DNA from: Calditrichota bacterium
GTDB taxonomy: Bacteria > Zhuqueibacterota > JdFR-76 > BMS3Abin05
Length of the DNA: 64,000 nucleotides
Direction: 5' to 3'
NCBI GenBank assembly: GCA_013151735.1
Contig: JAADHR010000179.1
Span: 12,656-76,655, forward strand
Shown: piece after piece, positions 42,330-64,000 of the stretch
Layout of the letters: every line of letters starts with the position of its first letter
Numbering within the stretch: the stretch's first letter is position 1
The notes under the pieces: generated by a model
Databases searched by the model: none
What the model was told of the DNA's origin: nothing
What the model saw: only the letters and a program-made list of their open reading frames with translations
Position numbers and translations under genes: made by a program

Positions 42330-42476
42330 TCTCCGAGTTCCCGAACCTACAGCCCAAAAGCCAGGGTTCTCGAACCGATAGGGTTCAACTGGAAACAGGT
42401 GAGCCTCCCGCGTTTGGAAAGGAGATAGCAGAGGAAAAATAGCCCCAATTTCCGAACGCGAAATTGGGGTTTTTTG
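42330..42476 (+). ncRNA. Candidate molybdenum-cofactor (Moco) riboswitch with intrinsic-terminator expression platform
   Basis: CUCCGAG...UCGAACCGAUAGGGUUCAACUGGAAACAGG...GAGCCUCCC...GGAAAGGAG resembles remembered conserved blocks of the Moco RNA motif (RF01055). Followed by hairpin AGCCCCAATTTCcgaacgcGAAATTGGGGTTTTTTG. Lies next to mobA. Confidence 0.4.
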
Positions 42477-42586
42477 TTTGAAAAATCTGTCGTAAAAATC
42501 CATAGAGAAACGCAGGAGACCGGGGAACGGATCAGAGAATATTGGATCTGCCTCCGGCAAATTAAATTTTTCCATTGGGAGGAAAC

Positions 42587-43219: not shown

Positions 43220-43288
43220 AAAGAAACAACAGAGCGGCTTTATTATGATTCTGGCTTTCCCGGTTTTTTTACAACATTTATCTGCCAT

Positions 43289-43834
43289 TTGTCTGAAATG
43301 ATACGTATTCTGATAACCGGTGAACAGGGTGTCGGAAAATCGACACTTACTCAAAACCTGGTTCAAAAACTGCATCTAAAGCCCTCGGGTTTTAAGACCC
43401 TTCCCATTTATGAAGGCCGCCAGAAATTGGGGTATTATCTTCAAGACCTGGAAACCGGAGAAAAGTATCTCTTTGCACACAGGCGTTTCAAAAGCGATAA
43501 GCGCTTGGGTGATTTTGGAATTCGTGAAGAGGTATTTGAGAAATTCGGAACACAAATTGTGGCGCAGGTGATGTCGAAAGAGGGCTGGATCGTCATTGAT
43601 GAGGTCGGAATTATGGAATCAGATTCCAGGCCTTTTGTGGATGCCCTGAAAAAGCTGTGGAAATCGCCCCGCAATCAGATCTGGGTCATCCAAAAAAGAA
43701 GCCCAATCCTGGGAATGCTCGTCAACCTGAGAGTGCCCTATCATCTATTCGACGTCACGGTTTCCAATCGTGGAGAATTGGCAAATGAAATTCTGAAAAC
43801 CATCCGGCACACTGCAAACAATGAAGAGGGTTGA
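43289..43834 (+). CDS. P-loop NTPase, THEP1/NTPase_1-like
   Basis: Walker A ITGEQGVGKST, Walker B WIVIDEVG; about 180 aa. Confidence 0.55.
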   Translation: MSEMIRILITGEQGVGKSTLTQNLVQKLHLKPSGFKTLPIYEGRQKLGYYLQDLETGEKYLFAHRRFKSDKRLGDFGIREEVFEKFGTQIVAQVMSKEGWIVIDEVGIMESDSRPFVDALKKLWKSPRNQIWVIQKRSPILGMLVNLRVPYHLFDVTVSNRGELANEILKTIRHTANNEEG

Positions 43835-48705: not shown

Positions 48706-49164
48706 ATGCCAAAAAAGTCTTTATGGATGCTTCCGGTTTTCATTGGACTGGTCGGGTTGTTGATTTTTCTTTTTTCGAATCGGAACGGCGGTTGGGTAAA
48801 CGCTTCACCCAAAGCCCGCGTTCTTGTTCAAGCGGATCAACACCCCGGCTGGCCGGAAAATAGAGCGGAGCTGGAAAGCAAAACCTGCCGGGGGTGTCAT
48901 ATGACGACCACTCCCGACGTGTACAAAGAATGGGCAAACGGCAGACATGGAATTGCAAATGTACGCTGCACCGTTTGCCACGGTTCATTTGTAGATTTTA
49001 AGAGTGTCCCTTCGGTGGAAACGTGCCGGAGCTGCCATGCCAAAGAATACGATCAAATGGTTCTCCCGGAAGGGAAAACAAAAATGACCTGCTGGCAGTG
49101 TCATCCGGCGCATTATGAATCGGTTCATCGGATTGATAAAACCAAACCTTCACCCTTTCATTAA
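48706..49164 (+). CDS. Membrane-anchored tetraheme cytochrome c (NapC/NrfH size class)
   Basis: N-terminal TM helix; 4 CXXCH (CRGCH, CTVCH, CRSCH, CWQCH); strong RBS AAGGAGG. Confidence 0.7.
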   Translation: MPKKSLWMLPVFIGLVGLLIFLFSNRNGGWVNASPKARVLVQADQHPGWPENRAELESKTCRGCHMTTTPDVYKEWANGRHGIANVRCTVCHGSFVDFKSVPSVETCRSCHAKEYDQMVLPEGKTKMTCWQCHPAHYESVHRIDKTKPSPFH

Positions 49165-49185
49165 ATAAAGGAGGTGAGTGTAGTT

Positions 49186-51546
49186 ATGACAATGAAAAGA
49201 CGTGATTTTGTGAAGACCACGGCAGCCGCAGCCGTTGCATCGGCTCTGGGTGTCAGCCTGAAAATCCCTTCAGCCGGAGCGGAAATTCCGCCGGGCGAAA
49301 AGGATGTGGATAAGTGGGTGAAGGGAACCTGTCGATTTTGCGGCGTCGGATGCCGCATGTATCTGGGTGTAAAAAATGGGAAACCGGTGGCGGTAAAAGG
49401 GGTTGAGGATTCCAAAACAAACTTTGGGTTTCTCTGTATGAAGGGATTTTTACAGTATAAAATCTACAACCATCCGGACCGGTTGAAATATCCCCTGCTG
49501 CGCCAGAAGAACGGTGAATTCAAGCGGATTTCCTGGGACAAAGCCATGGACATTATGGCGAAAAAATTTGCCCATTCCATTAAAAAATATGGGAAGGATT
49601 CCGTTGCCTATTACGGATCGGGTCAGGCGTTGACCGAAGAAACCTATCTCATTCAGAAGATTTTTCGGGCTGGAATTGGCAACAGTAACGTAGAAGGAAA
49701 TCCCCGGCTTTGTATGGCCAGTGCGGTAGGCGGGTATGTGACGACCTTTGGAAAAGATGAACCCTCCGGATCCTATTCCGACATCGAGCATGCCACCTGC
49801 TTTTTTCTGATTGGAACCAATCAGGCAGAGGCGCACCCCGTTCTTTTCCGGCGGGTTATGAACCGAAAACTCTCCAATCCGGACGGCATCAAGGTGATTG
49901 TGGCGGATCCCCGTGTCACCCCAACATCCAGAATTGCAGACCTGCACATGAAATTCCTGCCGGGAACCGATCTGGCTGTTATGCATGCCATGGCCAATGT
50001 TATCGTGAATGAAGGACTGTACAACAAAAATTTTGTGGATCATTTTGTTGACTTCAAAACGATGAAAAACGGTAAGCCGGCCAGCATGACATTTGAAGAA
50101 TACAAGACATTCCTGAATGATTTTACTCCGGAAAAGGCTGAAAAAATCTCCAAATGCCCGGCGGATCAAATTCGTCAGGCCGCGCGATGGTTTGCCACAT
50201 CCAGTGCTACCATGTCCATGTGGACGATGGGACTCAATCAACGTATTCGCGGGGTTTGGGCCAACAATCTGGTGCATAACCTGCATCTGCTTACCGGCCA
50301 AATCGGAAAGCCGGGTGCGGATTCTTTTTCGCTTACCGGACAACCCAATGCCTGCGGTGGCGTGCGCGAAGCCGGTGGGCTGTGCCACATTCTTCCGGGC
50401 CATCGATTGGTGGCTAAAAAGGCACACCGGGAACAAATTGCAAAATTGTGGACGATCCCGGTGGAACGATTGCCCAAAAAACCGGGCTATCATACCGTCG
50501 CCATGTTTAAAGCCCTGACGGAAGGAAAGATTAAGGTTATGCTGATTCACACCACCAATCCGGCACAATCCTTACCGGATTTAACTCCGGTGATAAAGGG
50601 TTTTAAGCGAAAAGATAATTTTATTATCGTAACGGATATTTTCCCGACCCGAACCACACAACTGGCGGATCTGGTACTACCAGCTGCTTTTCTGTTCGAA
50701 AAATCGGGCGTTTACGGATGCACCGAACATCGTTCTCAACTGACACAAAAGGCCCTTGATCCACCCGGGGAAGCACGGGAAGAAATCCAGGTCTTTCGTG
50801 AATTTGCCCTTCGCCTGGGCAAAGAAATGAAGGATCCGATCTACAAACATATCGTAAAGGGATTGCACACGTCGGAAGATATCTGGAATGATTATCGCCG
50901 GTGCACCAAGGGAACGGATGTAGACCTCTGGGGCGCCACTTACGAACGGCTCAAAAAAGCGCCGGATGGCCTGCAATGGCCCGTGCCCACGGTAACCTCT
51001 CCCGGAACACCCAAGCGATATGTTAAAGGAATTGATCCGCTGGCCAAAGGCAAGGCCTGGATTCAGTTTTACGGACATCCGGATGGACGCGCCTTTGTGT
51101 GGGCCAGGCCTTACAAGGGTCCGGCCGAACCGCCCGATGCAAGCTACCCGTTTTATTTGACGACCGTACGCGTAATTGAACAGTGGCACACGATGACGAT
51201 GACGGGGCGGGTTCCGGAACTTCTCCGCGGATTTCCGTATGCCTATGTGGAAATTAATCCGAAAGACGCGAAACGCCTGGGAATCAAACATGGCGATATG
51301 ATTGAAATCAAAAGCCGCCGCGGAAAAGTGGAGGTTCCGGCAAAAATAGTGGAAGGCCCGCGCGAGGGACTCATAGCCGTTCCGTGGCATGACCAGAATT
51401 TCAATCGAATGATTAATTTTGTGACCATTGAAGCGGTTGATCCGGGATCAAAAGAGCCTGAATATAAAATCTGTGCGGTTAAGATCAGAAAAATATCCGG
51501 TCCCAAACGCCTTAAACCCACCACGGTGGAGATGAAGCTGGTTTAG
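49186..51546 (+). CDS. napA: Periplasmic nitrate reductase catalytic subunit (molybdopterin oxidoreductase, NapA family)
   Basis: Tat motif RRDFVKTTAAAAV. [4Fe-4S] motif C-x2-C-x3-C-x27-C (CRFCGVGCRMY...LCMKGF). Followed by napD/napG/napH. Confidence 0.85.
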   Translation: MTMKRRDFVKTTAAAAVASALGVSLKIPSAGAEIPPGEKDVDKWVKGTCRFCGVGCRMYLGVKNGKPVAVKGVEDSKTNFGFLCMKGFLQYKIYNHPDRLKYPLLRQKNGEFKRISWDKAMDIMAKKFAHSIKKYGKDSVAYYGSGQALTEETYLIQKIFRAGIGNSNVEGNPRLCMASAVGGYVTTFGKDEPSGSYSDIEHATCFFLIGTNQAEAHPVLFRRVMNRKLSNPDGIKVIVADPRVTPTSRIADLHMKFLPGTDLAVMHAMANVIVNEGLYNKNFVDHFVDFKTMKNGKPASMTFEEYKTFLNDFTPEKAEKISKCPADQIRQAARWFATSSATMSMWTMGLNQRIRGVWANNLVHNLHLLTGQIGKPGADSFSLTGQPNACGGVREAGGLCHILPGHRLVAKKAHREQIAKLWTIPVERLPKKPGYHTVAMFKALTEGKIKVMLIHTTNPAQSLPDLTPVIKGFKRKDNFIIVTDIFPTRTTQLADLVLPAAFLFEKSGVYGCTEHRSQLTQKALDPPGEAREEIQVFREFALRLGKEMKDPIYKHIVKGLHTSEDIWNDYRRCTKGTDVDLWGATYERLKKAPDGLQWPVPTVTSPGTPKRYVKGIDPLAKGKAWIQFYGHPDGRAFVWARPYKGPAEPPDASYPFYLTTVRVIEQWHTMTMTGRVPELLRGFPYAYVEINPKDAKRLGIKHGDMIEIKSRRGKVEVPAKIVEGPREGLIAVPWHDQNFNRMINFVTIEAVDPGSKEPEYKICAVKIRKISGPKRLKPTTVEMKLV

Positions 51547-51623
51547 TGACGTAAGGGAAAATGACGGGCACCGATTTCTGTCTCTTCATCTGAAATCGGT
51601 GCCTTCAATTAAAGCGGAGGAGC

Positions 51624-51905
51624 TTGTTTATGCCGATTACCGGGGTTGCAATACAAACAATGCCTGATAAAACGAGCTTTGTTTACGATGTACTGAATGA
51701 AATGAAAGCGGTCAGCCTCTACGGAGATGATAAAAAAGGGAACATTATCGCCGTTCTGGAGACCGAAAATAAAAAGGCCCTGGAGGAATTAAACCAACAG
51801 ATAGAGGCCATAGACGGGGTCATAAAAGTGATGGGCGTTTATCATTACTTTGAGGACGATATTCCGTCCCCGAAGCAAAAAGAAAATGCAAAAAATGAAT
51901 TCTGA
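51624..51905 (+). CDS. napD: NapD-like chaperone
   Basis: 93 aa; ...VSLYGDDKKGNIIAVLETEN...IDGVIKVMGVYHYFED parallels E. coli NapD ...LVYHQQEE. Confidence 0.7.
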   Translation: MFMPITGVAIQTMPDKTSFVYDVLNEMKAVSLYGDDKKGNIIAVLETENKKALEELNQQIEAIDGVIKVMGVYHYFEDDIPSPKQKENAKNEF

Positions 51906-52518
51906 AGAAAACGGGTCGAAATCGCTTGATCGAAGGACGGTTCTGAAATCATTCTTGACTTTTGGAGCCGGGATGGGGTTATCCGTTTTACGGCCCGAGA
52001 ACCTGTTTTCTTCGGTGTTATGGTCTCCAATCGGGCGAAATCATCTGAGGCCCCCCGGGGCGCTTCCGGAGGCCGACTTTGTGGCAGCCTGCATTCGGTG
52101 CGGACGATGTGCCGAAGTGTGCCCCTATTATTCCATTGAACCGATTCGTTTGTCGGGCGGCCTGCAGGCAGGTACACCGCTGATTGATGTGGAGCACATT
52201 GCCTGTTACCTGTGCATGGAATGCGTAAAGGTTTGTCCCACCGGCGCGCTCCAAAACGTTCCTGCAGAAAAGGCAGGGATGGGGTTGGCACATATCGACC
52301 AGAAACGGTGCTGGGCCTACAATGGAAAAGCAATTTGTCGGGCCTGTTACGATGCCTGTCCTTTCAAAAATGTGGCGATTCAGCTGATTCGCCTAAAACC
52401 AATTATTATCGAAGATAAATGTGTGGGCTGTGGGCTTTGCGTGGCTGCCTGTCCCGTCCAGATTCCGCGTGCAGTAAATGTGGATCCGTTGGAGGATCAC
52501 CTGAAACGGAGTGGCTAA
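51895..52518 (+). CDS. napG: NapG-like periplasmic ferredoxin (4x[4Fe-4S])
   Basis: Tat motif RRTVLKSF. Four CxxCxxCxxxCP clusters. Start ATG overlaps the napD stop (ATGAATTCTGA). Confidence 0.75.
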   Translation: MNSEENGSKSLDRRTVLKSFLTFGAGMGLSVLRPENLFSSVLWSPIGRNHLRPPGALPEADFVAACIRCGRCAEVCPYYSIEPIRLSGGLQAGTPLIDVEHIACYLCMECVKVCPTGALQNVPAEKAGMGLAHIDQKRCWAYNGKAICRACYDACPFKNVAIQLIRLKPIIIEDKCVGCGLCVAACPVQIPRAVNVDPLEDHLKRSG

Positions 52519-53384
52519 AATTGGCTGACAAAACCAAAAAGAAAAGGATCTATTTTAGATATCGTCGGACGATTCAGATAGTGGGTTTTTTGTTTTTGCT
52601 AATTGTTCCCTTTTTAAATCTGTTTGGGTTTCATTTTTTTAACGGATGGTACCAATCGCTGGGCATCGGGTATTGGTTTATTGCTTCCCCTCTCGAATCA
52701 TTTGAGAGTTTTTTGATCTCGCGAACGTTTTTTTTAACCCTGTTTGTATCATTTTTAACGCCATTTATTTTAGCATTTATTCTGGGACGTGTATTTTGCA
52801 GCTGGCTTTGTCCGTTTGGGCTTCTGTCCGAGTGGGTGTCGGATTTCCGTCAGTGGGCGTATCGAAAATGGGGACACTCTCATCATCCGCCGGAGGGCCT
52901 TTTTGCGATTCCGCGATGGATAGTCTGGGTTATTCTGACGGCTGAGATTTTGGCGTCGATGATTGTGGGAACGTCTCTGTTTTCAATCTATTCCCCTCCG
53001 GGTGTGATTGGCCGGGAAGCCATGCGGCTGGCTTTTTTCCACATTTTGGGTGGGGAAATTCTTTTTATTTTGATCTTTTTGACATTTGAGCTTTTTGTCG
53101 CACGAAGAGGATTTTGCAGATATGTCTGCCCGCTGGGAGCCACTCTCTCATTGGTCGGCCAAAAACGCCTTCTGAAGATTGAGTTTGAATCCGCGAAATG
53201 TCAGAGAATCTGCAAAATTTGTGAAAATCACGAAATCTGTACCTGGGGTCTTATGCCGAAATTGGGAGAAGGAGCGTCGGTTTATTGTACCAATTGCGGA
53301 GATTGCATTGACATTTGTCCGTTTGATGCCCTTCGGTTCAACTGGAAAAACAAAACGGTAAGGAGTCCCGAAAAATATGGCTGA
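52419..53384 (+). CDS. napH: NapH-like membrane-bound iron-sulfur protein
   Basis: TM helices. CSWLCPFG and CRYVCPLG motifs. C-terminal 2x[4Fe-4S] (CQRICKIC...C, CTNCGDCIDICP). True start uncertain (TTG at 52521 also possible). Confidence 0.7.
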   Translation: MCGLWALRGCLSRPDSACSKCGSVGGSPETEWLKLADKTKKKRIYFRYRRTIQIVGFLFLLIVPFLNLFGFHFFNGWYQSLGIGYWFIASPLESFESFLISRTFFLTLFVSFLTPFILAFILGRVFCSWLCPFGLLSEWVSDFRQWAYRKWGHSHHPPEGLFAIPRWIVWVILTAEILASMIVGTSLFSIYSPPGVIGREAMRLAFFHILGGEILFILIFLTFELFVARRGFCRYVCPLGATLSLVGQKRLLKIEFESAKCQRICKICENHEICTWGLMPKLGEGASVYCTNCGDCIDICPFDALRFNWKNKTVRSPEKYG

Positions 53385-53952
53385 AAGTCCGGGGAAAACA
53401 ACACTCAATCGAAGGGAGTTTTTTTCATTGGGTCTGGGAACCCTGAAGGAACGGGTGCCCTTGCAAAAATCTCCGCAAAGCCGGCGAAATCGGCGGCCCA
53501 TCCTGAGGCCGCCCGGAGCCGTTTCAGAAGAAATACTGGGTCAGGAATGTACCAGTTGCGGCGATTGTGTGGTTGCCTGTCAATTTGAAGCCATTCGGTT
53601 GCTGGATCATCGGGCGGGAAAATATCAGGGTACCCCGGCAATCATTCCGAGGATTCAACCCTGTTTGTATTGTGAGGATTTTCCCTGTGTGACGGCCTGC
53701 AAGGAGGGAGCCCTTACAAAAGATCATCTTAAAATGGGGGTGGCTGAACTCGATTCCAGGCGGTGTTTCAACACGAAGGGAGGGTGGTGCGATGCATGTT
53801 TCCAAAAATGTCCGTTTTCGGGGGAGGCCATCCGATTGAACGAGAGACTTCAATTGGAAATCAATGCCGATTTCTGCACGGGGTGCGGACTGTGTGAACA
53901 TGCTTGTCCGCTGTCGCCGCCGGCGATTCGGATTGTTCCCCTGGAGATATGA
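53377..53952 (+). CDS. Tat-exported ferredoxin-type 4x[4Fe-4S] protein (NapF/NapG/MauM-like)
   Basis: RREFFSLGLGTL Tat motif; four Cys clusters (CTSCGDCVVAC, CLYCEDFPCVTAC, CDACFQKCP, CTGCGLCEHACP). Confidence 0.65.
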   Translation: MAESPGKTTLNRREFFSLGLGTLKERVPLQKSPQSRRNRRPILRPPGAVSEEILGQECTSCGDCVVACQFEAIRLLDHRAGKYQGTPAIIPRIQPCLYCEDFPCVTACKEGALTKDHLKMGVAELDSRRCFNTKGGWCDACFQKCPFSGEAIRLNERLQLEINADFCTGCGLCEHACPLSPPAIRIVPLEI

Positions 53953-54103
53953 TCCTCCCAATAAAGGGACCGTGCGTGTTCAGGGCGGTTTGGATTATTT
54001 GGAAGGGACAATAATTTGATTTTTTGAGATCAGATTATTTTTGTACACTTACCATAAATTTCGTTATAATTCAGGAATCCAATCCACTAAAATGGAGGAA
54101 TCA

Positions 54104-54577
54104 ATGGCAGAAGAAAAGAATGACGTACAAGAAGAAGGGCGCCGGAGTTTCCTGGCGAATCTTCTGTATGGAGGAGGAATCCTTGCCGCATTTGGGGGAT
54201 TTACAGCGGGTCTTCTTCGGTTCATTATACCCGAAAAACGGCCGCCCAAAATGAAAGAGGTTTTGGTTGCCCATTTCAATGAAATTGAAGTGGGGAATGC
54301 CAAGCCTATGGAGGTGGCCGGACAGAAGATTTTTGTGGTTCATTTAAAAGAGGGATATCGCGTTCTTTCAGCCATCTGTACGCATCTGGGGTGTATTGTT
54401 CAATGGCAGAAAGAAAACCAGGAATTCTTTTGTCCCTGCCACAAGGGCCGCTATCGTCCTGATGGAACGGTGATTTCCGGACCGCCTCCCCGACCTCTGG
54501 ATCACTTTCGAGTGGAGGTAAAAACAGGGCTGGTTTATGTCTGGATGAAAGAAAAATACACAGGAGGGCTTGTATGA
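54104..54577 (+). CDS. Rieske [2Fe-2S] subunit of a cytochrome bc-type complex
   Basis: RRSFLANLL Tat-like signal/TM. Box I CTHLGC, box II CPCHKGRY. GGAGG RBS before MAEEKN. Confidence 0.85.
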   Translation: MAEEKNDVQEEGRRSFLANLLYGGGILAAFGGFTAGLLRFIIPEKRPPKMKEVLVAHFNEIEVGNAKPMEVAGQKIFVVHLKEGYRVLSAICTHLGCIVQWQKENQEFFCPCHKGRYRPDGTVISGPPPRPLDHFRVEVKTGLVYVWMKEKYTGGLV

Positions 54578-55626
54578 GCGTACTTAAAAAGGAATGGTGG
54601 GTGGAAAGGGTCCCTCTGGATTACGAGAAAGCGATAGGAATTGTACGAGATCTTGTGATCAAGGAACCCATTCCCGTACACATGAAAAAATGGTACTATG
54701 CAATGGGAGCCACGCCCCTGATTTTATTCTTGCTTCAGGTGACAACCGGGCTTTTGCTGACATTTTATTTTATCCCCTCACCAGATATGGCTTACGAGAG
54801 TGTACGGCATATTCAACAGGATGTTCCTCTGGGGTTCTGGATTCGGGGATTGCACCGCTGGGGAGCCAACCTGATGATTATAGCGGTTTTTCTCCACATG
54901 CTGCGTGTCTTTTTTACCCGGGCATATCGCAAACCTCGGGAAATCAACTGGATACTGGGAACCCTTCTTTTGGGAACGACCCTGACAATGGGGTTTACGG
55001 GATATTCCCTTACCTACAACCAGCTTTCGTATTGGGCAACAACGGTTGGAACCAACCTCGTTAATCAACTTCCCCTGATCGGACACTGGCTTCTCACATT
55101 TATGCGGGGCGGAGAAGAGGTCTCTGCCAACACCCTGACCCGATTTTTTGTTTTTCATGAATTGTTTGTGCCTTCAATTTTATTTATTCTCATCGCCCTG
55201 CACATTTTTATGATTCATCTTCACGGCGTGGCCGAATTGGAAGGCCACGAAGGCGAGGGGTACTACGCCTTTTATCCTGATCATTTTGTTAAAGGAATTT
55301 ACATCACCCTGTTTCTGCTGGTTTTCATGAGTACACTTGCAATTTTAATTCCGCCGGGAATCGGAGTTCCGGCAGATCCCACCCAAACACCTATGCATAT
55401 CAAACCCGAGTGGTATTTTTATTCGGTCTACGGACTACTAAAACTTGTGCCGCTGTGGCTGGGTGTGTATCTGGTTCTGGCATTTATGATTGTACTGGTT
55501 TTCTGGCCTTTTATCGATGATTGGTTTCGGGCAAAATGGCCCAAAGCGCCTATCGGTTATGTCCTGGGCGGAACAACCGCTGTACTGGCGCTGGTATTTA
55601 CAATAATGGAACTATTAGCAAAATAA
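54574..55626 (+). CDS. Cytochrome b subunit of a Rieske/cyt b complex (b6 plus subunit-IV-like fused)
   Basis: 350 aa; haem-ligand His pairs in helices (…RGLHRWGANLMIIAVFLHMLRVFF…, …FHELFVPSILFILIALHIFMIHLHG…); ATGA overlap with the Rieske gene. Confidence 0.85.
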   Translation: MSVLKKEWWVERVPLDYEKAIGIVRDLVIKEPIPVHMKKWYYAMGATPLILFLLQVTTGLLLTFYFIPSPDMAYESVRHIQQDVPLGFWIRGLHRWGANLMIIAVFLHMLRVFFTRAYRKPREINWILGTLLLGTTLTMGFTGYSLTYNQLSYWATTVGTNLVNQLPLIGHWLLTFMRGGEEVSANTLTRFFVFHELFVPSILFILIALHIFMIHLHGVAELEGHEGEGYYAFYPDHFVKGIYITLFLLVFMSTLAILIPPGIGVPADPTQTPMHIKPEWYFYSVYGLLKLVPLWLGVYLVLAFMIVLVFWPFIDDWFRAKWPKAPIGYVLGGTTAVLALVFTIMELLAK

Positions 55627-55645
55627 ATAAAAGGAGGGTATTTTT

Positions 55646-57253
55646 ATGGCCAAGGGAGATGGAACAAAGTATCTGGTCGGAATTTTTTCGATTCTATTTT
55701 TGGTGACCCTGGTAATTGTGGCCGGCGTTGAGACGAAAAAGAGCGAATCTACAAAACCCGAAGTTGAACTAACCGGCAAGAGCAAACAATGTGTCACCTG
55801 TCACGAACGAAAAGGAATCGCCGTTAAACAAATTGAACAGTGGGAAGATAGCAAACATGCGGAATATGGCATTGGATGTATCGAATGCCATGCCGCAAAG
55901 AAAGGCGATTTTGATGCCTTTACCTGTCCGGGTAGTGATATTTTAGTGGGCCGTTACCCGACCCCCAAAGATTGTAGTGTTTGTCATGATAAGGAAGTGA
56001 AAGAATTTGAAAACAGCAAGCATGCTCACCAATTCTGGCTTTTGCATAATGATGACCGTGCCGTGTATGAATTTCCCTCTGCGGTTAAGCACGGATGCGA
56101 ACAATGCCACAGAATTGGAAATATGTGGCCCGACAGCAGCGTGGGCGACTGCTCGGCCTGCCATACCAGGCACTCCTTTAAAATTGCCCAGGCCCGAAAT
56201 CCGAAGACATGCGGAGAATGTCACCTGGGGCCAGACCATCCGCATATTGAGATTTATGAAGAATCCAAGCACGGAAACATCTGGGCGGCCGAAGGAAAAG
56301 ATTGGGACATGGGGTACGAAACGACGAATCACGAAAAAATCCCAATTAAAGCCCCCGTGTGCACAACCTGTCACATGGATGGTAGTCCCACACAGCCCAT
56401 GACCCACAACGTGAGTGCACGCCTGGCCTGGGAGTCACAGGCCCCGTGGAGTTATCGCACGGTCTGGGATGAGGAGCACCTGGGTACCTGGCAGAAAAAA
56501 CGGGAACGTATGAAAGAGATTTGTCTTAACTGTCATGCTCCCGATTTTGTTAATGAATACTTTTTGGAAGCCGACCTTGTCAATCTTCAATACAACGAAA
56601 TTCGGCGTCAGTTTGTTTACTGGAATAAAAAATTGTATAAGGAAAAATTGATGTATCCCTGGAAAACCGGCGACCGCCTCTGGACAAATCCCGTATTGGA
56701 CGGCTATGATCAGGAGCCGGAGCGCGCGAAATATTATGCCTGGCACCATGAAGGACGGCGTTTCCGCCACGGAGCCGAGATGATGGGGGCCGATTTTACC
56801 CAGTGGCATGGCATCTGGGAAGTTCAGCAAGACTTTATTGAAATGCTGAACTGGGCAGCCGACCATGGGGATGCCGAGGCCAAGGTGTGGCAGAAATCCA
56901 ATAATCCCACTAAAATGATTACATTCAAACTATATGATGTTCCAGGGAATGAATGGGGAATCAACACGGAGCTTTATAAACCCAACTTTGTGTACCAGAT
57001 GTTTCCCGATTATTGGACCCGCATTAAATCCAATGTGAAAGCCGCTTATGAAAAGGGACTCCTTTCACAGGATCAATGGGAATTATGGTTGAAGCGATAC
57101 AATAACAAAGAATACTACATGGGTACGAAATTTCCGGAACACCCGAAATGGAAATTCTACAAGGAACGTGATCAAAGGGATCTGAAACACATGAAGGAAT
57201 CGGTTATTGATCTGAATCTTCCGGGAGAATCCTTTTACAAAGACATGCACTGA
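55646..57253 (+). CDS. Membrane-anchored octaheme cytochrome c, HAO/ONR/Otr superfamily (candidate nitrite or hydroxylamine reductase)
   Basis: N-terminal TM; 8 CXXCH (CVTCH, CIECH, CSVCH, CEQCH, CSACH, CGECH, CTTCH, CLNCH); no CXXCK. Confidence 0.75.
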   Translation: MAKGDGTKYLVGIFSILFLVTLVIVAGVETKKSESTKPEVELTGKSKQCVTCHERKGIAVKQIEQWEDSKHAEYGIGCIECHAAKKGDFDAFTCPGSDILVGRYPTPKDCSVCHDKEVKEFENSKHAHQFWLLHNDDRAVYEFPSAVKHGCEQCHRIGNMWPDSSVGDCSACHTRHSFKIAQARNPKTCGECHLGPDHPHIEIYEESKHGNIWAAEGKDWDMGYETTNHEKIPIKAPVCTTCHMDGSPTQPMTHNVSARLAWESQAPWSYRTVWDEEHLGTWQKKRERMKEICLNCHAPDFVNEYFLEADLVNLQYNEIRRQFVYWNKKLYKEKLMYPWKTGDRLWTNPVLDGYDQEPERAKYYAWHHEGRRFRHGAEMMGADFTQWHGIWEVQQDFIEMLNWAADHGDAEAKVWQKSNNPTKMITFKLYDVPGNEWGINTELYKPNFVYQMFPDYWTRIKSNVKAAYEKGLLSQDQWELWLKRYNNKEYYMGTKFPEHPKWKFYKERDQRDLKHMKESVIDLNLPGESFYKDMH

Positions 57254-57284
57254 TAAAGACATTCTTGAAAAATTGAGAATACAA

Positions 57285-57320
57285 GAAGCGGAAGCACGTG
57301 CTTCCGCTTCTTTGGTTTTG
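57285..57320 (+). terminator. Rho-independent terminator
   Basis: Perfect GAAGCGGAAGCAC|GTGCTTCCGCTTC palindrome followed by TTTGGTTTT. Confidence 0.65.
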
Positions 57321-57716: not shown

Positions 57717-58298
57717 ATGAGAATTAGAAAAATGAAAATTGGCCTGGGTGTGATGTTTGCCGCCGGCTTAATTTTAACCTGGATGAGCATGGGGATATCC
57801 GGCACACCGCAGGCAAAAAAAGGTCAGTTTAAGTACATTGGCGTATTAAAATGCAAAATGTGCCACAACAGCGCCCGGAAAGGAAATCAATTTAAAATCT
57901 GGAAAAGCAGTCCTCATGCCAAGGCCTATGAAGCTCTTGGAACCGCTGAGGCAAAAGCGATTGCCAAGAAAAAAGGGATTGCTGACCCGCAAAAAAGCCC
58001 GAAATGTTTAAAATGTCATGTAACGGGTTATGGAGAGCCCAAAACGGCTTTTGGACCCAAATATCACATGGAAGATGGGGTTACCTGTGAGGCCTGCCAC
58101 GGTCCGGGATCGGCTTATTGGAAATCAAGTGTGATGCGAAAATTATATAAGGGCCAAATTGATCCCAAAACCGTCGGATACATTCAACCGAATGAAAAAA
58201 CGTGCGTACAATGCCATAATCCGGAAAGTCCGACCTATAAGAAATTTGTTTATGCAAAATTCTGGAAAGAAATTGCCCACAATATTCCCAAGAAATAG
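57717..58298 (+). CDS. Periplasmic tetraheme cytochrome c (c554/c3-like size)
   Basis: Signal peptide; 4 CXXCH (CKMCH, CLKCH, CEACH, CVQCH); RBS AAGGAGGG. Confidence 0.75.
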   Translation: MRIRKMKIGLGVMFAAGLILTWMSMGISGTPQAKKGQFKYIGVLKCKMCHNSARKGNQFKIWKSSPHAKAYEALGTAEAKAIAKKKGIADPQKSPKCLKCHVTGYGEPKTAFGPKYHMEDGVTCEACHGPGSAYWKSSVMRKLYKGQIDPKTVGYIQPNEKTCVQCHNPESPTYKKFVYAKFWKEIAHNIPKK

Positions 58299-58315
58299 GC
58301 ATTCGAATTTTAGAA

Positions 58316-58356
58316 ACACAAAAGCATCTCCAGAAGGAGATGCTTTTGTGTTTTAT
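58316..58356 (+). terminator. Rho-independent terminator
   Basis: ACACAAAAGCATCTCC-agaa-GGAGATGCTTTTGTGT followed by TTTAT. Confidence 0.65.
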
Positions 58357-58776
58357 AACCCTGGCAAAACGCTTTGGGCACCCATTGGAAAAACCAACCG
58401 CCAAATCATCCTGCGAAAACCATCCTGACACCCTACGTTTTATCGGCTTATCGTTTGCCATCTCGGTCGAATGAATCAAACCCAATAAAGCATGTTGAAT
58501 AATTCAACAAAAATAGGGGCAGATAGGCCTCAAAATCAAAAGCTCTTAAAAAACTGAAAATTTTTATTGATTTTTATTGTGTAAAGTTTAAATTAGTAAG
58601 CAATATTATGAGTATGTTAAATGCGATATAAATCAATCATTAAAAATTCTTTTTGCCTTCAGATTTTACAGGATCATAAAATAGTTTCTCTGAAATTTCA
58701 TATTTGAAAATTATATTTTTAAAAGTGTGTCTGATCAAAATAGGCCCATTTTATCAATAGCAGAAGGAAGGATAGA

Positions 58777-60795
58777 TTGATGATGAAAAAGGCAAAAAGA
58801 TTCGGAACGGTGTTTTCGATTGGCCTGATTTTTATTACGGCGGCCGTATTTTTTATAGACTCTTCCAATCGCGCTTTTGTACACGCCCAGAGCAATCAGG
58901 ATTGCCTGGAATGCCATGGGGACCCGGAGTTTACGGGGGAAAATGAACAGGGGAAAGAGGTTTCCCTGTATGTAAGTGTTGATTCGTTAAAGAATTCCGT
59001 ACATGCCGGTTTGGCCTGTACGGATTGCCATTCCGATGTAAAACAATCCCCGCATGAGGAACGCCCTAAAAAGGTGTCGTGCGAGCAATGTCACGAGGAT
59101 ATTTATCAGAACTTTGTACAGGGCGTCCATGGGAGGGCTTTATTGCGGGGCGATAAGGATGCGCCCAGTTGTGCCACCTGCCATGGATCTCACAATATTC
59201 ATCCGTCAGACGATCCCATTTCACCCACATCGAAACTGAATCAACCCAAAACCTGCGCCAAATGCCACGGGGATCCCGCTTTTAACCAGCGTCACAAGAT
59301 TCCAGTAGCCGATCCCACCCGGGCCTATATGCACAGCATTCACAGCCGGATGCTTCAGCAGGGCAAGAATGCAGCAACGTGTAGCGATTGCCATGGTGCC
59401 CATAAAATCCTTCAGGCATCCAATCCCGATTCAAGAATCAATTCCAAAAATGTTCCGGAAACCTGCGGCAAGTGTCACTACAATGAATACAAACAATTTA
59501 TTGAAAGCATCCATGGAGAGGCGCTTCTTAACGGCGTGGATGATGCTCCCAATTGTACGGATTGTCACGGGGAGCATTCAATTCAGGAGGTGACCAGTAA
59601 AAGTTCCCCGGTGAATCCTGAAAATGTGTCGCAGCAAACCTGTGCCCGATGTCACGCGAATGAAACATTGAACGAAAAATTTGGGATGCCGAATGATCGG
59701 GTGTTGACCTACGAAAACAGTTATCATGGTCTGGCTGTCAGGGGGAAATCCAAAATTGCCGCAAACTGCACCAGTTGTCACGGTGTCCACAATATTTATC
59801 CCTCATGGGATCCGCGTTCTACCGTTAACAAAGACAATCTGGATCGAACCTGCGGGAAATGCCATCCGGGAGCAAGTAAACGGTTTACCGCAATTCCCGT
59901 ACATCAACCCAGAAATCCCGCGGAAGCAAAGGCTGCCGACATTATTACCAGAATCTATATTCTTCTGATCATTTCCGTTATTGGCTCAATGTTCTTTCAC
60001 AATTTCCTGATCTGGCTGCAGGCGGTTATCCGGAAATATAGAAAGATCTTAACTGAACCGTCTATCACCCGGTTCAATAAAAGCATGATTATTCAACACT
60101 TTTTTCTTTTTATCTCATTTACAACCCTCGTAATTACGGGATTTGCTCTCAAATTTCCGGATGCCTTCTGGGTGAAAATTTTGAGCTCCATTGGGCTGCA
60201 TGAATCTATTCGATCGGTTATTCACCGGGTTGCCGGAACGATACTGATTGTAACGAGTTTTTATCATTTATTCTGGCTCTTTTTCAGTAAGCGCGGCCGA
60301 ATTGAATTACGTTATATGGTTCCCGTACTCAAGGACGTAACCGATGCCGTCCACAGTGTGGAATATTATCTGGGCTTTCGTGAAACGAAACCGGAATATG
60401 ATAAGTATGATTATACAGAAAAGGCTGAGTACTGGGCCCTTATCTGGGGCACGGTGGTTATGGGGGCCTCTGGTTTGATTCTTTGGTTTCCGGTTATTGC
60501 AGCCAATCTTTTCGGGGGTTGGATTGTTCCGATTGCTTTGCTTTTCCACTACTTTGAAGCGATACTTGCAACGTTAGCCATTTTGGTATGGCATTTCTTC
60601 TTTGTTATTTTCCACCCGAGCGAATATCCTATGAGTTTGGTCAGTATTACAGGAAAAATGCCGTGCGAAGAATGCAAAAAACATCATGGGTACTGGTACC
60701 GAAAACTTATGCATAAAGAACCCGAGTCTATTCGCCGGATGTTCGATGAGAAGGGTGAGTGTGAGGAGTTGGAAGAATACGATGAAGAGTCGTAA
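58777..60795 (+). CDS. Fusion protein: periplasmic 11-haem cytochrome c domain plus C-terminal dihaem cytochrome b (FdnI/HydC-like) membrane domain. CbcL-like.
   Basis: Signal/TM. 11 CXXCH in the first ~370 aa. Then about 5 TM helices with conserved His (…HRVAGTILIV…, …HYFEAILATLAILVWH…). Confidence 0.75.
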   Translation: MMMKKAKRFGTVFSIGLIFITAAVFFIDSSNRAFVHAQSNQDCLECHGDPEFTGENEQGKEVSLYVSVDSLKNSVHAGLACTDCHSDVKQSPHEERPKKVSCEQCHEDIYQNFVQGVHGRALLRGDKDAPSCATCHGSHNIHPSDDPISPTSKLNQPKTCAKCHGDPAFNQRHKIPVADPTRAYMHSIHSRMLQQGKNAATCSDCHGAHKILQASNPDSRINSKNVPETCGKCHYNEYKQFIESIHGEALLNGVDDAPNCTDCHGEHSIQEVTSKSSPVNPENVSQQTCARCHANETLNEKFGMPNDRVLTYENSYHGLAVRGKSKIAANCTSCHGVHNIYPSWDPRSTVNKDNLDRTCGKCHPGASKRFTAIPVHQPRNPAEAKAADIITRIYILLIISVIGSMFFHNFLIWLQAVIRKYRKILTEPSITRFNKSMIIQHFFLFISFTTLVITGFALKFPDAFWVKILSSIGLHESIRSVIHRVAGTILIVTSFYHLFWLFFSKRGRIELRYMVPVLKDVTDAVHSVEYYLGFRETKPEYDKYDYTEKAEYWALIWGTVVMGASGLILWFPVIAANLFGGWIVPIALLFHYFEAILATLAILVWHFFFVIFHPSEYPMSLVSITGKMPCEECKKHHGYWYRKLMHKEPESIRRMFDEKGECEELEEYDEES

Positions 60796-60829
60796 ATCGA
60801 TTTGCATTGTAAAAAGTAATGCAATCAGC

Positions 60830-60863
60830 AGGCCTTTTCCTTTAACGGAAAAGGCCTTTTTTA
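60830..60863 (+). terminator. Rho-independent terminator
   Basis: GGCCTTTTCC-tttaac-GGAAAAGGCC followed by TTTTTT. Confidence 0.6.
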
Positions 60864-60940
60864 TTCTGGACAATTCCTACTCGCATTGTCTTATTAGGAA
60901 TGAGAAATAGTCTCAATAATTCTATTTGTGGAGGGTAATC

Positions 60941-61648
60941 ATGGCTCCAGAAAAAAAACCAGAAGAAATTCAACGATTTTCCTGGAATATCCGAATTCAA
61001 CACTTTATTTTGTTGACCAGCATGATCGTTTTATGCCTGACCGGCCTGGCACTCATGTTTCATGATACCTGGTTTGGGCACCTGGTGATCAAACTGGAAG
61101 GAGGATTTGAAGCAAGAGGAATTATTCATCGCATTTTTGCGGTCATTTTGGTCCTCCTTGGAATTTACCATTCATTTTATGTTCTTTTTACGGAAGAAGG
61201 TCATCAAGAGCTTATGAAATTGCTTCCCACATGGAAGGATGTTCAGGATTTCTTTCATTCATGGACCCTTTCCCTGTCCGGGAAAAAAGAAAGCCGGGAA
61301 TTTGGGAAATACAGTTTTATAAATAAAATTCAATACTGGGGTGTGGTCTTGGGATTTATCGTCATGGTTATTTCCGGTGGCATTCTTTGGTTTCGATCCA
61401 TATCGATGGCTATTTTCCCCAAATGGGTAATTGATCTTGTGGTGATTTTTCATGGATGGCAGGGCTTAATCATTTTCATCGTGTTATTCCTGTGGCATCT
61501 CTATAATGTTCATCTGAATCCGGATTATTTTCCAATGAGCAAGGTGTGGCTCACCGGGAAAATCAGCGTTGATGAACTAAAAAGAAAGCATTATCTGGAA
61601 TATGTGGAACTATTTAAAGAAGATGGGGGGAAAGCTAAAGATGAATAA
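60941..61648 (+). CDS. Dihaem cytochrome b membrane subunit (FdnI/HydC-like)
   Basis: Homologous to the C-terminal domain of the upstream fusion (…IRIQHFILLTSMIV…HRIFAVILVLLGIYH…WHLYNVHLNP…). GGAGGG RBS before MAPEKK. Confidence 0.7.
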   Translation: MAPEKKPEEIQRFSWNIRIQHFILLTSMIVLCLTGLALMFHDTWFGHLVIKLEGGFEARGIIHRIFAVILVLLGIYHSFYVLFTEEGHQELMKLLPTWKDVQDFFHSWTLSLSGKKESREFGKYSFINKIQYWGVVLGFIVMVISGGILWFRSISMAIFPKWVIDLVVIFHGWQGLIIFIVLFLWHLYNVHLNPDYFPMSKVWLTGKISVDELKRKHYLEYVELFKEDGGKAKDE

Positions 61649-62726
61649 AGGCCGTGTGAAAAAATTTGTGATGGCACCTTTGTTTGTGGCCCTTTTTTTA
61701 TCCGTACTTTATGGGCAAACGACTAATACGAAAAAGACAAAAGCCCTGCAATGGCAAAAATGTCTTTTGTGTCATGCCAAACCGGATCTGAAAAAGGTGA
61801 CAAGAGAGGGACACGTCATTTCGCTTTTTGTTGATCAAAAAAAGCTTTTAAATTCTTCCCATAAGAATATTCGATGTCAGGAGTGTCATATTGATATTGT
61901 GACGATTCCTCACAAGGGCGAAATAAAACGGGTGGATTGTACGCGGTGTCATTATGAAGGAAGCCCGATTGAGCCGAAGGGAACGAAACGGTACACCCAA
62001 TTTCAAAAAAGCGCGCACGGACAGGCGTTACTGAAGGGAAATCCCAAAGCACCCCACTGTCAGGATTGTCACGGGGATCATAACATATTGCCGGCCAAAG
62101 ATTCACGGTCGCAGGTAAACAAATTCAATGTCGTCCGTACCTGCGGGAAATGTCACACGAATGAATATCGGGATTATGAGGAGAGTATTCATGCAAAACT
62201 GCTGAACCAGAAAAAACCCGAGGCGCCTTCCTGTACAGACTGCCACGGTGGTCACACGATTGAGCCTCCCACGCAAAAGAGTTCATCGGTGTACGGCACG
62301 AAAATCCCGGATACCTGTTCCCGATGTCATTCTTCGGTAAAAATTGTTGGAAAATATGGCATTCCGACCCAGCAGGTACTCACCTATGAAGACAGCTTTC
62401 ATGGAATTGCAACGAAATTCGGGGATGAGAAAGCGGCTAATTGCGCCAGTTGTCACGGGTATCACAGCATATTGCCTGCGAGCGATCCACGTTCGCCAAT
62501 CAACAAAAAGAATTTGCCGCACACCTGCGGAAAATGTCATAAAAATGCCAATAAGAATTTTGCAAAGGGGAAGATACATGTCGACCCGCATAGCAAAAGC
62601 TCAGGAATTATCTATTATGTTGGCCTGTTTTTTAAGTATTTAACCATATCTGTTCTTTTTGCATTAATTATACATATTTTTTTGGATCTAAATCGTAAAT
62701 TTCATGAGAAGAAAGAGGAACGATAG
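61641..62726 (+). CDS. Nine-haem cytochrome c with signal peptide and C-terminal TM anchor
   Basis: 9 CXXCH (CLLCH, CQECH, CTRCH, CQDCH, CGKCH, CTDCH, CSRCH, CASCH, CGKCH); hydrophobic C-terminal helix. Confidence 0.75.
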
Positions 62727-62731
62727 TATTT

Positions 62732-63697
62732 ATGAAAGAGGAACCATTAAAAAAGGGTGAAATTGCCGCCATCGAAAAAGATTTAAAGGAGTTTATCCGG
62801 CAGCAGATTCAAGACCATCTTGCAAATGAAGTAAATGAATCCTACGCAGAAGAGCTGGAAAAGAAATTTTTGAACCGGTTTGAACAGCAATTGGATAGGC
62901 TGAAAGGGGAACTTCATCAAGAAATATTGGAAGAAATAGAATATAAAAAGAAACAAATTCTTCACAAGAAAAAGAAGGAACGAAAAGAAAAGGAAACCAT
63001 TCAATCGGTAGAGAGATTCTCACTGAGTATTCGTATCCAGCATGTTATCATGTTCACATCGGTGCTGATTCTCATTTTCACGGGATTACCCATAAAATTT
63101 CACGACGCGGCGCTCTCAAGGTTCTTAATCACGCTATATGGAGGCATTCAAACGACGCGCTTTATTCATCGGATAGGGGCTACAGGCCTGATTTTTGTGG
63201 GTGTTTTTCATCTGATCTATCTCATTTTTACAAAAGACGGACGAAACAATTTTAAGGAGCTCTTTCCAAGTAAAAAAGATTTTATTGATGTATATCAGGC
63301 CATCCGGTATTTTTTGGGACTCAGTGAAGAAAAACCCAAATTTGGCCGGTTTACGTATATTGAAAAATTCGATTATTGGGCGGTGTACTGGGGGATGATT
63401 GTCATGATTGGAACAGGCCTTATTTTGTGGTTTGAAAATATCTCTCTCCGTATTCTGCCAAAATTCATATCGGACATCGCCATCGAAGTGCACAGCGATG
63501 AAGCCATGCTGGCAACACTGGTCATTGTTATCTGGCATTTTTACAATGCTCACTTTAATCCGTCCAAATTTCCGCTGAATAAAACGATTTTTACCGGAAG
63601 AATATCCATCGAAGATTTGAAGGAGGAACATCCTCTCGAATATGAGAAACTCCTTAAAGAAGGAAAAATTCCAAAGCTGGAGGAAGAAGATTCATGA
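62732..63697 (+). CDS. Dihaem cytochrome b-like membrane subunit with N-terminal charged coiled-coil extension
   Basis: C-terminal 220 aa parallel the 60941 protein (…[14 protein letters not shown]…[15 protein letters not shown]…[10 protein letters not shown]…). N-terminal ~95 aa rich in E/K heptads. Confidence 0.65.
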
Positions 63698-64000
63698 AGA
63701 GTTTCTTGGCCGATTTTTGGAATCTTATACGAAAACATTATCGATTTTTGGTGATGGTTTTTCTCATTATTTTTGGAGTGCTTGTTTTTGTTGATCTTGG
63801 ATTTTATACGTCTTCGGTTATAGCTCCCAAAACGTGTGCTGTCTGCCATTATGAGACATCGGTCGTGAATCGCTGGGAAAATTCCTACCATGCCGACGTC
63901 AGTTGTTCCAAATGTCACACCTACAGTCCGGGAACCTACATTCGATTCATCTGGAAATATTGGACGGGGACATACCGCTTTCAAATCAATCCGCACATTA
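63694..64000 (+). CDS. NapC/NirT/NrfH-like membrane-anchored cytochrome c. The 3' end runs off the window.
   Basis: N-terminal TM, then CAVCH and CSKCH within the first 70 aa; ATGA overlap with the upstream gene. Confidence 0.5.

Follow-up and report, generated by a model that had tools for sequence, protein, structure and literature searches.

The window analysed here, 64,000 nucleotides of contig JAADHR010000179.1 from a Calditrichota bacterium (assembly GCA_013151735.1), closes with a cluster of five open reading frames (ORFs; 58777-64000) that encode multihaem cytochromes c and FdnI-like dihaem cytochromes b (Table 1), all on the forward strand and at the positions where a first-pass annotation of the sequence had placed them. 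The region probably encodes inner-membrane enzymes of the CbcL/MtrH/MtoC kind, which would link the menaquinone pool to chains of periplasmic c haems. One of these enzymes is a single fused polypeptide (the fusion), and the other is the product of a four-gene operon, b2-c2-b3-c3, in which c2 and b3 would constitute a split version of the fusion. To our knowledge, of all the steps in extracellular and periplasmic electron transfer, the one carried out by quinol oxidases of the inner membrane is the least understood, and only ImcH, CbcL and CbcBA of Geobacter and CymA of Shewanella have been studied experimentally. The CbcL design appears here both fused and split in one genome, the four-gene unit is conserved across several uncultured lineages, and the locus offers well-defined subjects for structural studies and electrochemistry. 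Enzymes of the fused type are widespread and have been described before; the four-gene arrangement, though conserved, has no description in the published literature searched, which likewise gives no account of its N-extended b subunit or of its variable presence among close relatives.

The fusion contains exactly 11 CXXCH motifs and matches PF01292 (Ni_hydr_CYTB) over residues 432-614 (E 6e-15, above the gathering cutoff). Its hydropathy profile gives a signal peptide, an 11-haem c domain (residues ~28-385), a transmembrane (TM) helix designated TM0, a short cytoplasmic linker and the four helices of the b domain. The ATG at 58783 is better placed than the TTG and is the likely start. Across an alignment of 41 fusion homologues all 11 CXXCH motifs, 11 distal periplasmic His and five membrane His are invariant, one of the membrane His being in TM0; the distal His are thus sufficient in number for bis-His ligation of all 11 c haems. 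Fusion His 441, 483, 591 and 606 align with FdnI H18, H57, H155 and H169, and the loop at the start of TM3, which aligns with the quinone-binding region of FdnI, holds an invariant Y-x-E-K-x-E-Y-W motif. When an AlphaFold2 model of the fusion (predicted local distance difference test score, pLDDT, 82) was compared with the PDB by Foldseek, FdnI (1kqf_C) was the sole significant match, with a TM-score of 0.76 normalised to FdnI; HyaC was much weaker. Among solved structures, a recent deposit, PDB 28pb_A ('Cytochrome c', 278 aa), is the best sequence match both to the N-terminal part of the fusion c domain (E 6e-7) and to c2 (E 2e-6).

CbcL consists of a multihaem c domain joined to a dihaem b domain, with five membrane His including one in the first TM helix (Joshi et al.), and its homologues, together with those of MtrH and MtoC, have been reported from 15 phyla and vary in length (416-1034 residues) and in the number of haem motifs (3-23) and TM helices (4-6) (Zhong and Shi, PMC6295460). 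For comparison, CbcL-type sequences (P0290, P0122, P0126, P0127 and P0292; P and L numbers designate proteins and loci of the comparison set) were reached through a bait derived by optical character recognition from the supplement of PMC9129911. The bait itself retrieved only short b-type proteins, one of them from Desulfuromonas thiophila. A further search, made with the fragment P0122, gave many relatives, one named Geobacteraceae; these were C-terminal halves of CbcL type, none longer than 373 aa, and no full-length named G. sulfurreducens protein was among them. P0290 and P0328 comprise the last c haem motif, a His-bearing TM0, a four-TM b domain and an extra C-terminal helix, which is the published six-helix layout of CbcL. 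P0290 is colinear with fusion residues 356-636 (29% identity, E 4e-33) and matches b3 as well (39% identity, E 2e-43). In general the CbcL-type fragments are 27-40% identical to all three b domains of the window, similar to the identity of these domains with one another and far closer than FdnI. Both the architecture and the P0290 alignment bear out the proposal of the first-pass annotation that the first gene is a CbcL-like fusion. A protein search found more than 7,700 fusion homologues sharing the Pfam architecture, many of them labelled 'formate dehydrogenase gamma subunit', and the loci that encode such homologues in species-representative genomes number at least 590. Host groups among the listed loci include Acidobacteriota, Calditrichota (including Caldithrix abyssi), Ignavibacteriales, Melioribacter, KSB1, Zixibacteria, Latescibacterota, Gemmatimonadota and Verrucomicrobia. 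Within the CbcL/MtrH/MtoC family, which is huge and has been surveyed before, the fusion is unremarkable. In L001-L005 the c554-like gene is likewise found directly 5' of the fusion gene, and genes of this kind adjoin fusion genes in L010, L011, L026, L048 and L086; the c554-like cytochrome of the window is a candidate soluble redox partner that probably exchanges electrons with the fusion.

The b domains of the fusion, b2 and b3 are 32-40% identical in pairwise comparison and have six invariant His in common, in agreement with their earlier designation as paralogues. Four of the six align residue for residue with H18, H57, H155 and H169 of E. coli FdnI (1KQF chain C), which are the haem ligands in that structure, and mapping of the ligands thus found all four FdnI-type His in each of the three domains. 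PF01292 is matched above its gathering score by b2 (E 3e-13) and b3 (E 5e-17) as it is by the fusion, so that the proposed search with profile models of the Ni_hydr_CYTB/FdnI family placed all three b regions in it. Sequence identity between the window b domains and FdnI is 17-22%, and the NCBIfam models for the formate dehydrogenase gamma subunit and hydrogenase cytochrome b match the b regions only under their curated cutoffs (for TIGR01583, 49-69 bits vs a cutoff of 115.85). With scores below cutoff, the b regions are cytochromes b of the FdnI/HydC superfamily and not FdnI or HydC proper. No formate dehydrogenase genes adjoin the cluster. Caution is warranted over annotation of these proteins, now labelled 'formate dehydrogenase gamma subunit' or 'hypothetical'.

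The genes of the cluster are under purifying selection and none is pseudogenised. Compared with a close relative whose fusion is 93% identical (L001-L003), the ratio of nonsynonymous to synonymous substitution rates (dN/dS) is 0.03 for the fusion gene and 0.02 for the c554-like gene (the latter vs L001). Compared with a second relative whose fusion is 71% identical (L004-L006), the proportion of differing synonymous sites (pS) is 0.76-0.82, which is saturated, and that of nonsynonymous sites (pN) is 0.17-0.24 for the fusion, b2, c2 and b3 genes. No cluster gene is interrupted. Ligand loss and pseudogenisation had been named beforehand as the outcomes that would speak against functional modules; neither was seen, the ORFs being whole, dN/dS about 0.03 and pN far below pS.

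The arrangement of the genes suggests two transcription units. The b2 and c2 ORFs overlap by 8 nt, c2 and b3 are separated by 5 nt, and b3 and c3 overlap by 4 nt (ATGA), with a plausible ribosome-binding site on each. Given these overlaps and the intrinsic terminator that follows the fusion gene, the fusion gene is probably transcribed alone, and b2-c2-b3-c3 probably make up an operon of their own with coupled translation. There are exactly nine CXXCH motifs in c2 and none in either b2 or b3. In the first-pass annotation the region was described as three consecutive modules, each a cytochrome c with a cytochrome b. The genes, the haem counts and the b domains of that description stand, but the modules are not three equivalents: there is one terminated fusion gene and one operon of four genes. 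The hairpin 3' of the c554-like gene, also a likely terminator, is absent from a consensus terminator scan because its extended stem consumes part of the T-run. Between this hairpin and the fusion gene, a block of about 50 nt (58550-58604) is near-invariant across the window, L001/L002 and L004, although synonymous sites are saturated between the window and L004. This block has no match in Rfam and is a possible promoter or regulator site. No sigma-54 -24/-12 motif is present in 58299-58782 or in 60796-60945; sigma-54 activators are encoded elsewhere in the window and are not adjacent to the cluster.

The operon recurs in other genomes. The full b-c-b-c tetrad is found in L004, L091/L092 and L093/L094, with counterparts of b2 in the first position in L004, L091 and L093. 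A trio consisting of a c2-like gene, an N-extended b gene and a c3-like gene, without b2, is found on a Zixibacteria chromosome (L019) and in a Calditrichaeota metagenome-assembled genome (L024), and the same c-b-c trio in L087, L089 and L090, where contig ends preclude a check for b2. In total, at least seven lineages besides that of the window have the tetrad or the trio. Subunits of the b3 type fall into one well-defined group of orthologues, and those of the b2 type cluster only weakly. An origin of b2 as a lineage-specific duplicate of b3 was considered and dropped, since b-c-b-c tetrads occur in L091 and L093 as well. The trio of L087 is adjoined by Rieske/cytochrome b genes, and the same locus encodes (4395-6173) a protein of 592 aa with a response-regulator receiver domain, a TM helix, a NapC/NirT domain and 11 CXXCH motifs, which would be a cytoplasmic phospho-acceptor domain joined to a membrane multihaem cytochrome.

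Which subunits of the operon belong together was addressed with a table of all ORFs for b-type or multihaem proteins in 86 related loci. In other genomes stand-alone b subunits are paired with a multihaem cytochrome gene immediately 5', mostly overlapping, in 31 of 31 cases; the cytochrome has a C-terminal TM helix in all 31, and this helix contains a His in 29. The c-then-b order is also the domain order of the fusion and the gene order of fdnH-fdnI. Over its full length c2 is colinear with the c domain and TM0 of the fusion (38% identity), haems 4 and 5 being all that it lacks, and its TM His aligns with the His of TM0. Since b3 comes next, c2-b3 corresponds to the fusion split over two genes, and on these sequence comparisons c2 with b3 is favoured as the core of the operon product. 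The first-pass annotation had grouped b2 with c2 and b3 with c3, and this grouping has on its side the overlap of the genes within each pair and the existence of reverse, b-then-c fusions among the nearest relatives of b3. In such proteins (P0139, P0150, P0163, P0168, P0262 and P0271) a b domain is followed by one extra helix and 7-16 haems. P0262 (716 aa) is a triple fusion of an FdnI-like b domain, a 7-haem c domain and a C-terminal NarI-like domain (PF02665), and its tail resembles c2 and the fusion c domain (E 2e-9); the tail of P0163 is weakly colinear with c3. Together with three intact paralogous b domains and the precedent of potential-specific quinol oxidases in Geobacter, these features would accommodate three independent quinol:cytochrome oxidoreductase modules (fusion, b2 with c2, b3 with c3), each tuned to a potential in the manner of ImcH, CbcL and CbcBA. 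Such a set of modules is nonetheless unlikely, given the uniform c-then-b order with a C-terminal TM helix on the cytochrome, the colinearity of c2 with the fusion and the position of b3 immediately after it, the c2-b3-c3 trios without b2 in L019 and L024, and the separate transcription of the fusion gene.

Each of the junctions b2/c2, c2/b3 and b3/c3 is fused somewhere, which fits two pairs in either register or one assembly of four subunits. A single membrane super-complex of b2, c2, b3 and c3 is a speculative and rather improbable version of the latter. It would contain two FdnI-type dihaem b subunits and two anchored multihaem cytochromes, with ~26-27 c haems and four b haems, and quinone could react at as many as three sites, two of the FdnI type and one of the NrfH type. 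The charged cytoplasmic arm of b3, ~90 residues in length, would be a docking or regulatory element. If it exists, such a complex would be an electron gate from the quinone pool to the periplasm of a class unrepresented among characterised respiratory complexes.

The b3 subunit is distinguished by its N-terminal extension. The first 92 residues include 19 E and 17 K, and the b domain begins near residue 90. In an AlphaFold2 model of b3 (pLDDT 88), helices 8-30 and 36-90 run into TM1 and the extension occupies the position of TM0 in the fusion; the rest superposes on FdnI, the top fold match (TM-score 0.79, root-mean-square deviation 3.4 Å). Across the PDB comparisons of the fusion and b3 models, FdnI and HyaC alone came up. 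The N-terminus of FdnI is cytoplasmic, and the extension, being highly charged, must be cytoplasmic too. The feature had been described at first as an E/K-rich coiled coil of about 95 aa; the E/K-rich helices are retained, but the length is about 85-92 aa and the model gives helices only and no coiled coil. N-extended b3 orthologues are encoded in L004, L019, L024, L087, L089, L090, L091 and L093, and their extensions keep the composition (rich in E, K, R and L) and not the sequence. The homologues that an exhaustive search gave for b3 amount to 2,409 cluster representatives, 650 of them with E <1e-30, and only about eight of the top 150 matches align into the extension; the b-then-c fusions described above came from this search. 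An exact-match look-up found no exact copy of b3 on record.

The last gene, c3, is cut by the window edge, and the portion within the window matches the NrfH model TIGR03153 well below its cutoff (E 1.5e-8, 34.8 bits, cutoff 134.2). Its continuation was read by synteny, in line with an initial proposal to look past the contig edge: in L004-L006 the full c3 is 673 aa long and is followed by dnaE. The syntenic orthologue in L004 (14942-16963) has 17 CXXCH motifs and one CX4CH motif and aligns with the window c3 from residue 1. The initial view of c3 as a NapC/NrfH-like cytochrome truncated by the window edge consequently holds for the NrfH-like start and for the truncation, but the protein is not of the small NapC/NrfH type. 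Orthologues overall are 513-713 aa long with 13-20 CXXCH motifs, and in those of L024, L091 and L093 the above-cutoff match to PF03264 is confined to the first 60-90 residues. In five orthologues (L019, L024, L090, L091 and L093) the first haem motif reads CXXCH(F/Y)M, and in both the window c3 (63829-63849, residues 46-52) and the BMS3Abin05 c3 it reads CAVCHYE, with Glu replacing Met. In the structure of D. vulgaris NrfH, the Met after the first haem motif ligates haem 1 beside the quinol site. By analogy, c3 may carry a third, modified quinone-facing site.

The two sets of close relatives differ in how much of the cluster they retain. L004-L006 (BMS3Abin05 and two further assemblies) have the same order of genes as the window, namely c554-like, fusion, b, c, b, c3 and dnaE, with a first b of 236 aa, a 9-haem c and a second b of 321 aa bearing the same N-extension. 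In L001-L003, three independent assemblies of the 93% relative, what comes directly after the fusion gene is the middle part of c3, with dnaE behind it. The gap extends from about position 60896 of the window, just past the fusion terminator, through the first ~198 codons of c3, a loss of at least ~3.3 kb that removes b2, c2 and b3. The remnant of c3 is an intact ORF of 503-514 aa with 11 haem motifs and no signal sequence (L001:12062-13573, L002:3522-5066, L003:3271-4160). Because full-length, anchored c3 occurs in distant lineages, the gap is a deletion in the population of the 93% relative.

A working model can be proposed for both enzymes. What the analysis shows is a pair of b-haem sites per b domain, extended chains of bis-His c haems facing the periplasm, and anchoring in the membrane; the quinone site, the direction of flow and the pairing of subunits are inferred. 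In the fusion, the four-helix FdnI-like domain would hold two b haems stacked across the membrane, and TM0 would tie this domain to the 11-haem periplasmic domain. In the operon product, c2 would use its C-terminal helix as the fusion uses TM0, or as FdnH uses its anchor helix; c3 would be a membrane-anchored ~17-haem cytochrome with an NrfH-like start and b2 a second b subunit, these two being either extra subunits of the same assembly or a second pair. Quinol would be oxidised close to the cytoplasmic b haem, at a site like that of FdnI, and electrons would flow outward to periplasmic or extracellular acceptors. With oxidation at the cytoplasmic side, electrons would move outward with the membrane potential and protons would be released inside. 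Such a reaction would suit low-potential acceptors at a low energy yield, as reported for CbcL.

Several observations weigh against this model or against parts of it. The link to CbcL runs through CbcL-type fragments, one of them (P0292) named Geobacteraceae and one (P0127) named Desulfuromonas thiophila, and not through G. sulfurreducens CbcL; no NCBIfam equivalog model reaches its cutoff. The c2 orthologues in L019 and L024 are without the TM His, and the b-then-c fusions P0139, P0163 and P0262 provide a precedent for the alternative pairing. In at least some populations b2, c2, b3 and an intact c3 are dispensable, the fusion and c554-like genes being retained. No outer-membrane conduit genes were found within the window, which leaves an extracellular acceptor without local support. 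Finally, the reverse reaction, an FdnI-like loop in which quinone is reduced from periplasmic donors, would fit the sequence equally well.

FdnI is a quinone reductase, and the b domains of the window are structurally FdnI-like. The CbcL/MtrH/MtoC family is argued to work in both directions and is implicated in quinone reduction in Fe(II) oxidisers (PMC6295460); the direction is not legible from sequence. In the reverse direction Fe(II), reduced sulfur or hydrogen (via cytochromes) would serve as donors and menaquinone would be reduced at the cytoplasmic side, forming an energy-conserving redox loop like that of Fdh-N or that proposed for MtoC, which would feed the nearby nitrate/nitrite reductases. 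The family includes MtoC of Fe(II) oxidisers and offers no sequence feature that splits the two directions, the window already encodes quinol-oxidising routes (a NapGH-like pair and Rieske/cytochrome b with an HAO-family octahaem), and the closest relatives come from hydrothermal samples. Reverse flow is all the same doubtful: the sole genetically characterised member, CbcL, is a quinol oxidase, no donor-oxidising enzyme or outer-membrane conduit adjoins the cluster in the window or in the relatives, and the nap/bc neighbourhood is not conserved with the cluster. Outward electron flow from menaquinol is the direction adopted here.

Upstream of the cluster and on the same strand lie nap genes, Rieske/cytochrome b genes, an HAO-family octahaem gene and the c554-like gene (Table 1). 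The adjacency to a nap/bc locus, to which the first-pass annotation drew attention, is real in the window but not conserved, being absent from both the 71% and the 93% relatives; only the c554-like gene stays with the fusion gene. The location of the cluster directly 3' of napA/D/G/H, Rieske/cytochrome b, octahaem and c554 genes could indicate a dedicated electron supply to NapA and the HAO-family octahaem rather than to extracellular acceptors. This is very unlikely. Peptidase and sugar-metabolism genes flank the cluster in the 71% relative, and in the 93% relative it comes after a succinate-dehydrogenase-like and Psr-like locus; in the window, terminators separate the octahaem, c554 and fusion genes; and the neighbours of the family across 80 loci are other multihaem cytochromes and not nap genes. 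Functional coupling to nap/bc as the principal explanation of the cluster was rejected because the neighbourhood differs in relatives.

Table 1. Features of the fusion and b2-c2-b3-c3 cluster, and of the remainder of the window, in order of position within each group.
Feature	Coordinates	Strand	Description
c554-like gene	57717-58298	+	tetrahaem periplasmic cytochrome, 193 aa, signal peptide; PF13435, E 5e-21
Hairpin 3' of c554-like gene	58316-58359	+	likely terminator; 16-bp stem, AGAA loop, then T-rich tail; direct reading
Conserved intergenic block	58550-58604	+	AT-rich; ~200 bp 5' of fusion start; direct repeat TTTTTATTG x2
Fusion gene	58777-60795	+	CbcL-family fusion; 672 aa from TTG or 670 aa from ATG at 58783
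Intrinsic terminator	60830-60867	+	11-bp stem, 6 GC pairs, then TTTTTTATTCT; 35 nt past fusion stop
b2	60941-61648	+	stand-alone four-TM FdnI-like dihaem cytochrome b, 235 aa, without N-extension; GGAGGG ribosome-binding site
c2	61641-62726	+	9-haem cytochrome, 361 aa; N-terminal signal sequence; C-terminal TM helix 329-347 with His
b3	62732-63697	+	FdnI-like dihaem cytochrome b, 321 aa; E/K-rich helical N-extension
c3 (N-terminal part)	63694-64000	+	102 aa in window; TM helix 18-36, 2 CXXCH, then window edge
Sigma-54 activators	6031-7395; 40185-41561
tRNA genes	10667-11062	+	tight cluster of four
Large secreted proteins	16507-27447	+	two proteins, 1401 and 2243 aa; CarboxypepD_reg, cohesin and FN3 repeats; GC 0.50-0.54 vs ~0.44 elsewhere in window
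Molybdenum-cofactor riboswitch	42319-42440	+	RF01055, 81 bits, E 4e-18; 5' of small ORFs 42575-43834
MoeA gene	45487-46698
Beta-barrel protein gene	46889-48376		Alginate_exp-like; just 5' of nap cluster
nap cluster	48706-53952	+	152-aa tetrahaem cytochrome, NapA, NapD, NapG-like, NapH-like, extra 4Fe-4S protein
Rieske, cytochrome b and octahaem genes	54041-57253	+	consecutive; cytochrome b is b6 + subunit IV-like, nearest ExtP model; octahaem of HAO family (PF13447)
Terminator after octahaem gene	57283-57312

Neither NapB nor NapC is recognisable in the nap cluster of the window, and the octahaem has a weak similarity to hydrazine dehydrogenase. The molybdenum-cofactor riboswitch shares an island with MoeA and NapA. 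Farther from the cluster, the 1401-aa member of the two large secreted proteins also matches the type IX secretion system C-terminal sorting domain (Por_Secre_tail); the region that encodes the two proteins points to a host of the FCB superphylum.

In other genomes the fused gene is often beside further quinone-linked cytochromes. In 37 of 80 loci the 11-haem fusion gene has a second b-domain gene less than 10 kb away, for either a 17-21-haem fusion or a b subunit on its own, and other loci have an ImcH-like neighbour. The second fusions with 17-21 haems are found in Calditrichota, KSB1, Latescibacterota and Zixibacteria, and paired fused quinone-linked cytochromes are common in Calditrichota, KSB1 and Latescibacterota. 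In L009, L010, L011, L041, L046 (Caldithrix abyssi), L070, L082 and L083 the 11-haem fusion adjoins a 19-haem fusion of 924-967 aa that has its own FdnI-like b domain; the pairs are mostly in same-strand tandem and are convergent in L009 and L083. About 25 of the 80 loci, chiefly from Acidobacteriota, encode a cytochrome of ~500 aa directly 3' of the 11-haem fusion, often with overlapping genes (e.g., L027, L029, L030, L038 and L040; also L042, L043, L058-L060, L068, L069, L072, L073, L076-L078, L080, L084 and others). This neighbour has extra N-terminal TM helices, a NapC/NirT domain and 5-6 CXXCH motifs, and is ImcH-like in architecture only.

Among characterised systems, the fusion is most readily compared with CbcL (GSU0274). 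Both combine a periplasmic multihaem c domain, an extra TM helix and an FdnI/HydC-like dihaem b domain, and in both the five membrane His follow one pattern: TM4 has two of them, and TM1, TM2 and the extra helix have one apiece. Both can supply two His ligands to every c haem, and a small periplasmic multihaem partner is likely, PpcA in Geobacter and the c554-like cytochrome in the window. The fusion differs in having 11 haems where CbcL has nine, and five TM helices plus a signal peptide in place of six TM helices, being without the C-terminal helix seen in P0122, P0290 and P0316. The 2018 survey of the family includes members with five or four helices, so that a count of five does not bar the fusion from it. 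The fusion is ~29-36% identical to CbcL-type sequences, its host is an uncultured bacterium of the FCB group from vent-type samples, and a split version (c2, b3) plus b2 and c3 is encoded beside it.

The operon resembles CbcBA (Cbc5) in that CbcA, a 7-haem cytochrome with a His-containing C-terminal TM anchor, is encoded before the dihaem CbcB, as c2 is before b3. CbcB has been described as HydC/PhsC-like, with three ligand His and a fourth contributed by the anchor helix of the c subunit, and as having no homology to CbcL. In contrast, b2 and b3 hold all four FdnI-type His and are CbcL-type by sequence, CbcB being compared here by its description. CbcBA is sigma-54-dependent with a BccR-like regulator, whereas the sequences upstream of the fusion and b2 genes have no sigma-54 motif, and the window operon has two b and two c genes.

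E. coli FdnI (1KQF) is the best structural match to the b domains of the window (TM-score 0.76-0.79), with which it shares the four haem-ligand His and a C-terminal cytoplasmic 'KKHH' segment. As with FdnH and FdnI, the gene that immediately precedes that of the b subunit encodes a periplasmic electron-transfer subunit ending in a TM helix. The partner in the window is a multihaem cytochrome, whereas FdnH is an iron-sulfur protein, and no formate dehydrogenase catalytic subunit is encoded near the cluster. What c3 shares with NrfH, NapC and CymA is a TM helix at the N-terminus with the first two haem motifs, spaced as in NrfH, directly after it. Its orthologues, at 513-713 aa and 13-20 haems, are far larger than these tetrahaem proteins of ~140-200 aa, and c3 is always encoded directly 3' of an FdnI-like b subunit.

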